DNA from: Escherichia coli
GTDB taxonomy: Bacteria > Pseudomonadota > Gammaproteobacteria > Enterobacterales > Enterobacteriaceae
NCBI RefSeq assembly: GCF_030013205.1
Contig: NZ_CP122650.1
Strand: one strand, 5' to 3'
DNA length: 58,594 bases
Shown here: piece after piece, positions 52,801 to 58,594 of the stretch
Layout: every line of letters begins with the position of its first letter
Numbering within the stretch: the first letter of the stretch is position 1
Made by a program: the position numbers

Positions 52801-55800
52801 TCGGCACATTCACCGCCATAACCCGGATGTCTTTCTGCCGGATCATTTTCTTCAACGTATTCCAGTCTTCCCCTGACAGGCGGGAAAGTCTGTCCACATC
52901 CTCGATAAGCAAAATGTCATTTTGTTGGCAATCTCTCAGAAGACGAAAAAGTTCCGGGCGCTCAAGACGGGTGCCGGATTCATTCTCAATATAGTAGCTG
53001 CAAATGATCAGGCCTCTTTCCCTGGCAAAAGCCTCGATAGTTTCCAGGGCACGCGAAGCATCCTGTTCTGCTGTTGAAGCTCTCAGATAAGCGCGGACAA
53101 AGCTTGTTGGTACATTTGAAGTCATATTACAGAACCGGTTCACATAAGGTTACACCACTATACCCAAAATGCACCAGAAAGTAGATCGACAGGAAAGGCA
53201 CACTCAAAAAGAACCAGAAAACAGACCTCCGGCCATAAAGTGACAATGTCACACAGAAATTTACAACATAAAGATGATGTAAAGACGGTCTCAGCTTTAC
53301 CACGTAAAGCCACTATAAATACACACAAATCTTTACATAATAAAGATAACATAAATACAAGCTTATCTTTATTTGTGCTTTACATGGTAAATCATGTGTA
53401 ATATAAAGACACTGTAAAGACAAAATAATCTTTACGAACAACACACACTGTAAAGATAAGACAGTCTTTACATAATCTTTACGTCATAAAGAGAGGAATT
53501 CTGAAATGGGTAAAATCTTGCTTGTCGTATCAGATAAGGGTGGTGTAGGCAAAAGCACCTACGTGGCTAACACAGGCTCAATGCTGGTCAATAAAGGTAA
53601 GTCGGTAATTATCCTCAAGACAGATAAAAACCACGATCTGTTGAGCTGGAACGAAAAGCGGACAGATAACGGCTTACTCACTATCCCGGTTCATGCAGCT
53701 TACGGAAACGTCAGCAATGAAATTAAGCGACTTAGTAAGCTGTGTGAAGTCCTCATTGTCGATTGCCCCGGCCACGACAGCCAGGAGTTCCGTAGCGCCC
53801 TGACAGTATCAGATATCGTGGTAACACTGGTTAAGCCGTCCTCTGATTTCGAAAGCGAAACTCTGACCAGTGTTACAGAGAAAATCCGCATCGCTCAGAA
53901 AGCTAACGCAGCCCTGGTACCGTGGGTGCTGTTCACCAGAATCAACTCAGCGAAACCCCGCCACAGAAAAGCGGCCATTGATCTGGATAAATTACTGCGT
54001 TCGGACAACATCTGGATTCAACCTCTTAAAACCCGGATATCCGAGCTGGATGTGTATGAAAGCGCCTGTAATGAAGGGGCAGGGGTACATGACGTTAGCC
54101 GGGCATCAAGCCTTTCAACAGCGAAAGCACAGATTGAACTAGTGGCGCAGGAAATTGGAATTTTATAGTAATATCAATACCATCTATAAATATTTACATT
54201 GTAAAGATAATATAAAGATAGTATGATATTTACTATTAATGCATACCGTACAAGGGGAAATTGTCATGGCTTTAAAACTAAACCGTCCGAACATCGATGA
54301 ATCTCAGCAACCAGCAACAAACGCAGAAACCGCGCGTTTTATCTCCGGCGCTACCAGAGCGCCTGTAGTGGGTAAACCAAAGTTGATGAACTTCAGACTT
54401 TCAGCCCATTTTGAGGACATACTGGAAGCTGAAGCTATCAGAACAGGGCAGAGCAAAACAACCGTTCTCAAAGCGGCGCTGGCGATGTACAACAGCCAGG
54501 ATGAAAACATAAAGAATCACTGGTTGCTTGAGTCTGCAAAATTCTAACCATAGAAGCATGGATGAAAATCTATGAGATATTTAACCGAATTGATCTGTGA
54601 CCTCTACAGGTTGACAGATCACCATAAACTGACCACAGCAACGTTTAAAAATCTTGCTGATATTAAGTTATTTAAACCTACAGCAGATGCAGACACCATA
54701 TTGCAGCTTGAAAATATATTTAGCGAATACTCACTGAGATATATTGACAAGGATCTGGCTGAAATTCTGAGCAACTTAATAACTACAGATAAGAAACACT
54801 CTCTGGACTTCGATTTTAACAAAATACAATCTCTGACTGACTCGAAAAGTTTCGGTTGTGGATGGAGCAAGGTAATAAATGGTAGTTGGTTCAAAGATCT
54901 TTATTCTTGGGGAGAGGGGATGTATCCTGCCGAAAATCTGAAAGCTGAAAATATTTTAGACTGGAAAGATAATATATGGCACATTGAGCATGAAGGTTTC
55001 CCCCCACGCAACCCTATTAATGTTAAATATTATTCTTGGTTTGACCGATATGTAGCTTCAAACAGTGGTGGTTCACATCATGCAGCAATGGTTGTATATC
55101 AATCAGTCAGAGACGGGTTAGAGTATAAAAGAGAAGCTGTTATTAAACAACTGAGTATAGACCCAGGCACTGTTGAAATACTTGATAAGAATTACTATTC
55201 ATTCATATTCCAGATCAAAACCCTTAATAAAGAAACTAGAATTTATACATCTGAATACGAGTTTACAGATGCTTTAAAAGACTTTGGACAAAACAGACAT
55301 ACCATACTTAAACCTGTTAATTACGTTTCCAACATAAAATTAGTATTTATTCCAAAAGATGCATTAAAAACAAATAGCGAGACATTCCGCAACTGGTTTC
55401 ATTCTGCAATTAGCTGCGGAAAAATAATATCACTCCCTGATTATCTGAAAAATCCAGCACATTATCATACACTTCATTACTCACATGAAGTAGACTCAAT
55501 AACACTTGGCGACCCAAGCAGAAAATTTAAACTGAAAGGAGATTCTTAGCTTTTATATAAAAAATCAATGTTATCATTTGTCAGAAGATCAGCGAGGGTA
55601 ATACATTCAAGAACCACAATATTTGTTCCTTCCAACAAACTGGCATCAAGTATCTTATCGAAGCTGATAATCATCATTGGCTTGCGTTGTGTTAAATCAA
55701 AGATTACCAATGGAAGTATTACACTGTTAATTAATTCAAACTCTTTAAAGAAAGCATCAGTGCCATACTCACTGGCTGGAAAAAGAATCTCAATTAATCT

Positions 55801-58594
55801 CACACCATAAAAAACATGGTAGTTTTCTTTAAGGTTATCCTTTAAAATATTAACAGCCTTAGTATATTTTTCGTTAATAAACTCTCTCACCTGATATTCC
55901 ATAAAATTCTCCGACAAGAACCGACTGTAGGTCACCGGGCAAACGTTGCAGAATGGCGTCAGAGACGTCATTTTGCGGCGTTTGCCCTATCCTGCATCGC
56001 AGTGAAAAGGCAGGGTCTGGCATAACTGCTGAGTAGCATCATTGCTGGCTTATCTCGCTACTGTTCTCGGTGCTTTCGTCCGCAGGTTCGGGAACAAGTA
56101 ACTTGTGCCAAGGCATAGTTTTGTTGAGCAGCTCCATCAGAGGCTCAGCCAGCAGTCCCAAAATCCAGGTTGCCGTAATCACCGGTATAGTCAGATTTTG
56201 TGGCGTCCATAACTGGTGATCGAGATGATACCAAGTGATGACACACAAAATACCACCCAGCCAGAATACAGCCCATTTAAACGCACCAAGAATGGCTAAC
56301 ACAAAAACAAAGATAAAATGTAAAACACTCGCGACAAGAAGACGAAGATAAAACCATCCCCAGCCAAGCCACTTAACAAAAGTGCTCCCTGTTTTCACTG
56401 CAAAACGTTTCTTACGCTCCCTGGCAATTTCTTTCCTGAATTTAGCACGTTCTTCCCCCTGAGGGAATTGATAGATTTGAGCCATGAGCTACCTCATTTC
56501 GATCTCAAAACGAAGTTTATGCAATTATCCTCTGAAACCGTATGGTATTCTGATATCTAAGCCCTCACTTTCTTTATCTATTTTATAAGAAAACCTTAGC
56601 TTTGATGCTCTTCTTGCGACTCTCTCAACGATTTTAACTTCGAGATGATTAATCTCTGTATATTGATTTATTTTTTCAATATTTTTTTGCAGAAAAACCT
56701 TATTAAAATCCTTAAAATTCTGATAAAGGTAAACTTTTTCGCCATTATCTATTCTGAATAATTCAAGTTCATCCTTTAATACATCTACTTCAATGTCGAA
56801 AAATGTCTTTTTACCACTGCTGTATTGTTTCCTGATAAACTGATAAAGCATATTTGAATTTTGATCAGCGAGTCTTACAGACGATATCAAAACCTGAGTA
56901 GTGTAAGAATCCTTTAACATCGTGATATATGGCTCAATGACATGTGAAAAAGCAATATCAATATATCCTTCACTTTCAACATAATCACAAAACGCAGTCA
57001 GGTTCATAAGCCTGACTGCATCAGAAGGTAATTTACCTCTCTTCTTCGTATGTCCAGAGCTTTGATTGCCCTGAGGTGTGAGAAGTTGATTTCGAGGAAT
57101 GCGAATAACACTGGCCTGAAGTTCTTCTGCCCCCTCTTTCAACTGCCGGTAAGCACCTGTTACATCAATATCAGCGATAAATGCATATTCCCGAGCCGTA
57201 ATACGAAAGGTTGCCCCCTCAGATAACTCTTCACGTGAATCAATCTGCGCCATAGCCATAAACAAAATTCTTCTGGCAGACAAAGGCAACGATGAGAATG
57301 TGCTGTTAATTTCATTTCTGTGGCGAATTTTTGTTTTCTTTGTAACGCTCAGTAAGTTCATACATTACCTGTGGTTTTTAAGTTCTGATGGTGAAATCAT
57401 AACCACAAAGGCGGAAATATGTAAAGTGGTTTATCCACCTTATGTATTTCCACCAAAACACTGATCACATGAAAGAATTTTTATCATTTATATTCAATAT
57501 GATAGAAATGCGCAGGTATCCACCTTTTAACGTCATACGTTAAATTAGAGCACTATAAAGAACTAAAGAAATGAAGATACAAAGATACGAATATCTGAAT
57601 AAAAACAGAAAAATGCGTACCCATCCACCTTTCAGTGCGTACCCATCCACCTTTCAGTGCGCAGCCATCCACCTTTCATGAAAATTACAGTGCGTACCTA
57701 TCCACCTTTCAGTGCGTACCCATCCACCTTTCATTTTGAGGCGACAAAAAACAACACCTATCTTAATGAAATTATTGATAAAAAAGCTGGCACAATGTTT
57801 GCAGAATAAGTTAAAGTAAGTTAAAGATCTTAAAGTAGATCTACCGATCTACATTTAAGATCTTAAAAACAAGAAGTTTAATAAGCAAAAAAACACAAAA
57901 AATCTGTGGATAACTCTGCTCAAAACAAAAAATTCACAGCGCCTGTGGATAACTTTGCGTAAACCCGGAGGACAGATCACTCTGAACCAAGACAACCACA
58001 CATAAAAACAATATGCTCATATTTTGACCACTGTGCGTAAGTGCCTAATGTAATCCCTGTGCTATTCCGCTTCCTCGCTCACTAACTCGCTACACTCGGT
58101 CGTTCGGCTGCGGCGAGCGGTGTCTCCTTTCTCAAAACCAGAAGAGTTCAGCTCATACGATCCGTTGATTGATCCTTTTTGGATCTTTCACTGAGAAGCC
58201 CTGAATCGCTTTCTGCCGCTTCGTTCGATACAACCATGGTGAAACCATGCGAAATCGAAAAAATCGCTCAGAATGCGATACAGCGCGTTTTAGAGGGTAT
58301 TTACAAAACAGTCGTTGCCTTGAGGAAATTTTGATCAAGATTGAACTCCTATCCGGATCATGGCAACAGATCACAGCAACAAGGCCGCTAAAAAGCGTTG
58401 AGCGGCGTTAAAAACCGTTAAACCGTAGCTGACTACAACGAAACGGGAAAAAACGCTCAGAACGCGTTACAGAGCGTTTTAAGGCGATGTCGGAAAGAGC
58501 CATATCTCACCTGTTCTGATGTTTTTCTCAACATAAGCACTTTTAAGAGTGCTTTTAAAGATGCTATTATGCCAATGAGACAAGCGGAGGGCTT

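Follow-up and report, generated by a model that had tools for sequence, protein, structure and literature searches.

The IncX transfer gene ddp3 and a DUF6685-family gene at a convergent junction in the IncX1 replicon of a porcine Escherichia coli haemolysin plasmid

In experiments with plasmid R6K, the DNA distortion polypeptide 3 (DDP3) is reported to distort DNA at the alpha and beta origins jointly with the relaxase TaxC (DDP2) and with TaxA (DDP1) (Flashner et al., 1996, Mol Microbiol 19:985; Nunez et al., 1997, Mol Microbiol 24:1157; both as relayed in PMC3332091). Its gene, ddp3 or taxD, has been discussed as a backbone gene of plasmids of incompatibility group X (IncX), specifically as a "DNA transfer element" (PMC3332091, Table 1), as a mobilisation auxiliary gene adjoining a second, replicon-proximal origin of transfer (oriT) (PMC3402527), and, for its product, as an auxiliary transfer protein (PMC4222815). 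Both the gene order repX-bis-ddp3 and the location of oriT in a long inverted repeat by ddp3/repX have been described for IncX (PMC3402527, PMC3332091). Here, two convergent open reading frames (ORFs) with overlapping stop codons were analysed in a 58,594-nt stretch of Escherichia coli DNA (contig NZ_CP122650.1 of assembly GCF_030013205.1; hereafter, the window), which the initial annotation had read as a pair of genes belonging to no recognised family, set into a plasmid maintenance backbone. Genes at the locus follow the order resolvase, parA, a small ribbon-helix-helix (RHH) gene, a 325-aa gene, ddp3 in convergent orientation, a gene in the bis position, pir/repB and iterons. Taken as a whole, the locus is probably the place where two unrelated transcription units of an IncX1 replicon meet at their 3′ ends, on an IncFIA/IncX1 haemolysin plasmid of porcine enterotoxigenic E. 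coli (ETEC): on the minus strand ddp3/taxD, a core IncX auxiliary transfer gene that would be encoded directly beside oriT-alpha, and on the plus strand a DUF6685-family gene that would fill a cargo slot of variable content, last in an RHH-led operon downstream of parA.

The locus was compared with the matching RefSeq plasmid NZ_CP122647.1 (58,596 bp; IncFIA+IncX1), which is 100% identical over the locus, is a near-complete match to the window, and supplied the annotations used below. This plasmid carries the hly operon and is typed as non-mobilisable. A 1.9-kb region is also 100% identical to many plasmids of pig E. coli.

The smaller ORF matched the NCBIfam DDP3 equivalog model NF041452 along the whole of the model, positions 1-116 (169.7 bits, cut-off 140; E 2.4e-50), and its 237 database relatives are DDP3 wherever the source names them, a few generic labels aside. 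DDP3 is present in 1959 PLSDB records, mainly conjugative MOBP/MPF_T IncX replicons, and the order repX/pir-bis-ddp3 beside the replicon-proximal oriT was found here as well as in IncX3, IncX5 and other IncX1 plasmids. By homology and position, the small ORF is thus ddp3/taxD, a core IncX backbone gene. It shares with DDP3/TaxD of R6K the passing of the equivalog cut-off over the full model, a length of 118 aa, and a position by bis/pir and the origin-proximal oriT, and nothing substantive differs in the gene itself; the plasmid here, however, lacks the TaxA and TaxC partners, being typed non-mobilisable, and because of this absence ddp3 is probably either a relic or active only when an IncX helper is present. 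In the RefSeq record the gene is labelled "ddp1", though its product is named DDP3.

Read from its first ATG, the minus-strand frame would be longer (55546..55971, 141 aa), extending by 23 codons (55903-55971) into a conserved oriT-like hairpin. The 118-aa form is nevertheless the correct extent of ddp3, as judged from three agreeing lines of comparison: RefSeq uses this form, all 28 aligned homologues start at its methionine, and the NCBIfam DDP3 model aligns to residues 24-139 of the 141-aa form. The shorter extent given in the initial annotation therefore stands. Many database records annotate ddp3 from upstream ATGs as 141 aa, and up to 160 aa; these are probably start-site misannotations, because the extension is unconserved, has no counterpart in the NCBIfam model and runs across the oriT-like hairpin.

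The 325-aa protein encoded on the plus strand is identical to RefSeq WP_001269910.1, a "DUF6685 family protein," and matched Pfam DUF6685 (PF20390) over residues 153-265 (31.3 bits, independent E-value 2.2e-7). The same Pfam model was matched by 79 of 80 family members, and at E<=0.001 by 34 of 38 close and 74 of 80 broad homologues, with a best value of 5.4e-33; the 325-aa protein and canonical DUF6685 members have a fold in common. Relative to the Pfam family, the IncX/enterobacterial subfamily is a divergent branch, covering 105 of the 207 model positions at 31 bits, and differs from the wider family by additional conserved N-terminal motifs (PTAD, NGSW and WG.GMYP). The signature motif, NSGGSHHAA, spans residues 164-172. 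Invariant in the close subfamily are P36, A38 and D39 of PTAD, NGSW at 103-106, W113, G114, M117 and P119 of WG.GMYP, GGSHHA, and Y303 and H305 of a Y..H motif, but in the set of 80 diverse members, conservation of 90% or more is kept by W156, S168 and H169 alone (consensus Y.W..RY.W.NSGGSHH.A....Q). The family is rare: 1.84 billion protein representatives contain 222 clusters of it at 50% identity (E<=1e-3).

Profile searches of the kind proposed in the initial annotation thus placed both proteins in families, contrary to its statement that neither had one. For DUF6685, an AlphaFold2 (AF2) model built from 38 sequences was confident (predicted local distance difference test, pLDDT, 85.4; predicted template modelling score, pTM, 0.83), and a Foldseek search with it returned only uncharacterised or DUF6685 proteins from AFDB50, with no significant neighbour in the PDB or among annotated AFDB entries. 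A sequence search of the PDB with the family profile gave only chance beta-lactamase matches (E>0.1); NCBIfam and PHROGs gave no match for the protein or for eight diverse homologues; and PADLOC-DB v2.0.0 gave none for the DUF6685 protein or DDP3, and a single chance-level match (E 0.014) among eight diverse DUF6685 members. A literature search found no paper on DUF6685, PF20390 or the RefSeq accessions. DUF6685 is a catalogued but unstudied family, and the locus as it stands is ordinary, already-annotated plasmid biology, largely catalogued, in which DUF6685 is one modest lead.

What lies between the RHH gene and ddp3 differs from one IncX lineage to another. This slot is occupied by DUF6685 with the same 4-nt overlap with ddp3 in the IncX1 plasmid of the window and in the IncX5 plasmid p15WZ-82_KPC, by two small genes in the IncX3 plasmid pNDM-HK3855, by two membrane and two hypothetical genes in pEC00704_6 (IncX1), and by YcxB in CP099110 (IncX1). 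In the IncX1 plasmid of an O178:H19 strain, the order ParA-ParG-RHH-hypothetical-YcxB is followed by a 46%-identical DUF6685 gene that ends 20 nt from ddp3. In PLSDB, DUF6685 is found in 468 plasmids, against the 1959 with DDP3. These comparisons support a swappable cargo slot with conserved flanks, and the idea that cargo is wedged into the maintenance backbone is borne out for the larger gene. The two IncX3 slot genes were also considered as remnants of DUF6685, which was rejected since the sequences are unrelated.

Within the slot, DUF6685 starts 24 nt after the RHH stop codon with no promoter-like site between them, and the only plus-strand promoter-like site upstream of the two genes (54193-54227; consensus matches only) lies inside a TTTACA..TAAAGA repeat copy, an arrangement consistent with an RHH-led operon with exchangeable distal cargo. 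The RHH protein is 87% identical to its IncX3 homologue, which starts at the residue corresponding to Met10 of the longer ORF; the RefSeq start agrees, and the true start is probably Met10 (54266). The protein matched a CopG-like PHROG at E 0.032 and shares 63% identity with a protein labelled "TraY domain" whose gene comes after that of ParG in a different IncX1 plasmid. An assignment of the 102-aa RHH protein to ParG was rejected, as it does not resemble ParG, and its homologue is the additional "TraY/CopG-like" RHH protein encoded behind ParG in other IncX1 plasmids; the ParG gene is absent from this plasmid. Arrays of direct and inverted TTTACA..TAAAGA repeats occur upstream of parA (53255-53490), and the extra copy between parA and the RHH gene overlaps promoter-like hexamers. 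These arrays are probably the partition centromere/operator, shared with the RHH-DUF6685 unit.

At the convergent junction, the four nucleotides TTAG (55546-55549) read TAG on the plus strand and TAA on the minus strand, confirming the 4-nt stop overlap of the two ORFs. Both ORFs have full-length homologues, down to 30% identity for the large one and at ∼30-60% for the small one, by which both are real genes. Their AT-richness relative to the flanks, emphasised in the initial annotation, holds against parA (GC 0.46-0.52) and the bis region (0.48), compared with 0.32-0.38 over 54500-55900, but not against the pir region, which is equally AT-rich (0.30-0.34). The identical overlap recurs in the IncX5 plasmid, and the divergent IncX1 lineage has the 20-nt gap instead. 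Scans for terminator-like sites and Rfam elements found none at the junction. As part of the explanation given above as probable, the overlap would reflect gene packing and no regulatory device. Coordinates of the locus are collected in Table 1.

Table 1. Features of the IncX1 locus, in window coordinates.
Feature	Position	Strand	Details
parA-type partition ATPase, upstream backbone flank	53506..54168	+	220 aa; NF041546 ParA_partition E 3e-26, below that model's cut-off
TTTACA..TAAAGA repeat copy	54188..54232	+	repeat families D1, D6, D10; promoter-like matches
RHH (CopG/TraY-like) gene	54266..54547	+	93 aa from Met10 of 102-aa ORF (54239-54547)
DUF6685-family gene	54572..55549	+	325 aa, ATG start; identical to RefSeq WP_001269910.1
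ddp3 (taxD), DNA distortion polypeptide 3	55546..55902	-	118 aa plus stop; NCBIfam NF041452 equivalog
Candidate oriT-alpha	55937..55995	+	hairpin with 24-nt arms (55937-55960 / 55964-55987) and TATCCTG|C (55988-55995)
bis-position gene, backbone flank between oriT-alpha and pir	56039..56485	-	148 aa; hypothetical in RefSeq
pir	56525-57361		

Between the ddp3 start and the bis stop lies a hairpin (inverted repeat I6) with a single-stranded DNA fold of -24.3 kcal/mol (z -6.3), directly followed by TATCCTG|C, which fits the nick consensus YATCCTG|Y of RP4-type (MOBP) oriTs. The 8-mer alone is not significant, with 22 matches in the window; the nic-like segment and its adjoining sequence are, however, conserved at the nucleotide level in IncX1, IncX3 and IncX5 despite DDP3 identities of 60-82%, and in the copy from IncX5 part of the 5′ hairpin arm is deleted. 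The hairpin and nic-like site are thus a candidate oriT-alpha. The parA-type ATPase listed in Table 1 is named "MipZ" in RefSeq. Six 22-bp iterons (57506-57731; consensus ∼CAGTGCGTACCCATCCACCTTT) lie upstream of pir/repB and are the gamma-origin of the IncX1 replicon.

The fold of DDP3 was also considered. Matches to DUF2726, over residues 10-82, were weak (E 0.06 for DDP3 here; E<=0.1 in 24 of 28 members; best 3.6e-4), and some GenBank homologues of DDP3 are titled "DUF2726 domain-containing protein." The PD-(D/E)XK superfamily includes DUF2726 (Steczkiewicz et al., 2012, PMC3424549). As in the DUF2726/Vsr-like branch of that superfamily, the secondary-structure order in the AF2 model of DDP3 (pLDDT 78), which is alpha-beta-beta-beta-alpha-beta-like, fits the core, in keeping with the weak but consistent DUF2726 matches; unlike in that branch, the catalytic lysine is unconserved (K, Q, E, N or L at its position), whereas the acidic residues D/E69 and D/E82 are kept. 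DDP3 is therefore likely a small, degenerate PD-(D/E)XK-like (DUF2726-like) protein; because the lysine position is unconserved, nuclease activity is doubtful, and non-catalytic DNA binding or bending seems more likely.

Outside IncX, contexts of DUF6685 were viewed in about ten loci, a small and unsystematic sample, and in every one it is a lone gene in mobile or variable DNA. No recurring partner gene was found among them, nor any ddp3 or DUF2726 neighbour. The contexts include a Pectobacterium island with a MobA relaxase, H-NS, a shufflon pilus, AAA_15 and DUF4435 genes, a pyocin and a TIR protein; a Cronobacter locus in which DUF6685 lies between a reverse transcriptase, umuDC and a prophage tail; Serratia plasmids in which it is beside Rpn and an AAA_13 ATPase; an island from a metagenome that holds an integrase, methylases, an AcrVA2-like protein and Mrr_N; an island with restriction-modification, in which a methylase, AIPR and HinfI are near DUF6685 (locus L023, 1-5375); an integrase-PRTRC element; a locus with RdgC and RecD2-like helicase neighbours; a Proteus plasmid in which the gene follows topB-hns and is beside hok; and a Vibrio megaplasmid. 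DUF6685 is thus shown to be an accessory gene that stands by itself and travels among mobile elements with no constant partner. In the Pectobacterium locus (L002), an AAA_15/AAA_21 ATPase with a DUF4435 protein, and a TIR protein, occur near DUF6685 (425-2650 and 16296-16981) as recognisable defence genes; the ATPase and DUF4435 genes are a PARIS-like pair. A possible defence role of DUF6685, as suggested in the initial annotation, draws its support from such neighbours of several distant homologues.

These distributions bear directly on whether the two genes form a functional module of defence, abortive-infection or toxin-antitoxin-like character, balanced by their convergent overlapping transcription, as the initial annotation of a pair had implied. 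Their adjacency with an identical 4-nt overlap is kept in IncX1 and IncX5, the 46%-identical DUF6685 of another IncX1 lineage is also convergent to ddp3, and the junction has no terminator-like site, all of which would suit such a module. Plasmids with DDP3, however, outnumber those with DUF6685 about fourfold; IncX3 and other IncX plasmids pair ddp3 with unrelated neighbours; ddp3/DUF2726 is a neighbour of DUF6685 in none of about ten non-IncX contexts; and DDP3 already has a documented transfer/origin role, with zero PADLOC matches. The module is largely refuted by this distribution and is highly improbable. Only one member of the pair, ddp3, proved to be a well-characterised backbone gene, and DUF6685 did not. 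For the larger gene, a separate reading is that of a housekeeping accessory of the IncX1/X5 backbone, either as a third component of parA-RHH partition or as a relaxosome/origin accessory acting with DDP3 at oriT-alpha, possibly through a highly diverged ParB/sulfiredoxin-like nucleotide-binding core. Its start close behind the RHH gene with no promoter-like site between, its distance of <400 nt from oriT-alpha, and the divergent alleles that hold the same IncX position are consistent with such a role, as is the order strand-strand-motif-helix-strand around NSGGSHH, which mirrors sulfiredoxin (IDVLWI..YFYSF-GGCHR-helix). Osa of pSa is reportedly a non-partition plasmid member of the ParB/sulfiredoxin superfamily (Maindola et al., 2014, Nat Commun 5:5322, as cited in PMC5696584). 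A sulfiredoxin alignment was built, and an 80-sequence DUF6685 profile was compared with the sulfiredoxin profile by hhalign, with reversed, shuffled and unrelated-profile controls. The top alignment set GGSHH on GGCHR (score 16.8, P 0.066), but this is within noise, as an unrelated profile scored 17.6 and one of 40 column shuffles reached 16.8, and Pfam ParBc matched none of the 80 DUF6685 members. The alignment was rejected as evidence of membership in the superfamily, controls scoring as high, and was kept as a weak structural lead; DUF6685 further differs from the superfamily in having no significant sequence or profile similarity to it, in a His that replaces the Arg of GxxR, and in a protein three times larger with additional domains. 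Since DUF6685 is also missing from most ddp3-bearing IncX plasmids and occurs in chromosomal islands without ParA, RHH or oriT nearby, a housekeeping role is unlikely.

The best guess for DUF6685 is instead a single-protein enzyme, in which the near-invariant Ser-His of NSGGSHH, at the N-terminus of a helix, would bind or transfer a phosphate or nucleotide, and which would act in conflicts that involve mobile elements, phages and hosts, not in the upkeep of the plasmid. More specifically, it may, tentatively, be a new single-gene conflict effector (defence, anti-defence or plasmid-versus-plasmid) with no solved relative, a Ser-His catalytic or nucleotide-binding centre, and a location in an RHH-controlled IncX1/X5 cargo slot by oriT-alpha. 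A narrower version, in which DUF6685 is not a defence gene but an anti-defence or establishment factor that counters host restriction or other immunity, agrees with its presence on plasmids and integrative elements and not in core chromosomes, with one homologue in an island with orphan-looking methyltransferases and the AcrVA2-like protein, and with another near RdgC and the RecD2-like helicase, which are typical of plasmid entry regions. Other homologues, however, lie within apparent defence islands (restriction-modification with AIPR; AAA_15/DUF4435 with TIR), the protein has no similarity to any known anti-defence family, and the IncX gene is on the hairpin side of the nic-like site, the side that by analogy with RP4-type oriTs would be transferred last, which disfavours early entry; anti-defence is thus quite improbable. 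Against the overall explanation given as probable stand four points: the 46%-identical DUF6685 alleles, which face ddp3 in the corresponding place of IncX plasmids, might point to an old function in the backbone in place of cargo; no model for DUF6685 exists in PADLOC, PHROGs or NCBIfam; the conflict function draws on neighbour genes in about half of the small sample of contexts; and the PD-(D/E)XK assignment proposed for DDP3 has behind it only E-values of 0.06 down to 3.6e-4.

Elsewhere in the window, a 410-aa ORF occurs four times, each with a 121-aa ORF (430-1982, 2259-3811, 36062-37671 and 49624-51176), and one further 121-aa ORF is at 31573-31938. In the matching RefSeq record, compared over this one stretch, the pair at 49624-51176 carries the annotations IS91 family transposase and hypothetical protein. 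Because the four copies flank the haemolysin and other cargo regions, they suggest that the hybrid plasmid was assembled via IS91. Just downstream of an IS91 copy, at 51114-51649, are two tandem pairs of direct repeats with a ∼281-bp period (113 nt and 147 nt; 99-100% identical). In the interval that separates the resolvase from the IS91 region, an Rfam AgrB antisense RNA (52079-52166, minus strand; 69.2 bits, E 1.4e-10) adjoins a gene at ∼52243-52326 on the plus strand that is annotated dinQ in the matching RefSeq plasmid; the two are a plasmid-borne dinQ/agrB type I toxin-antitoxin pair.

IncX plasmids are major carriers of resistance genes, among them NDM, KPC, mcr-1 and qnrS, and here of ETEC haemolysin. 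For these plasmids, the analysis corrects a false reading of an orphan gene pair and presents, from comparison of lineages, a slot that is swappable within an otherwise conserved maintenance and transfer backbone. The interest that remains is in DUF6685, a rare, partner-less family restricted to mobile elements, with a confidently predicted fold, no structural relatives and a conserved Ser-His motif. If DUF6685 acts in defence or plasmid competition, it would be a new single-gene system and could help to explain the differing success of IncX lineages.

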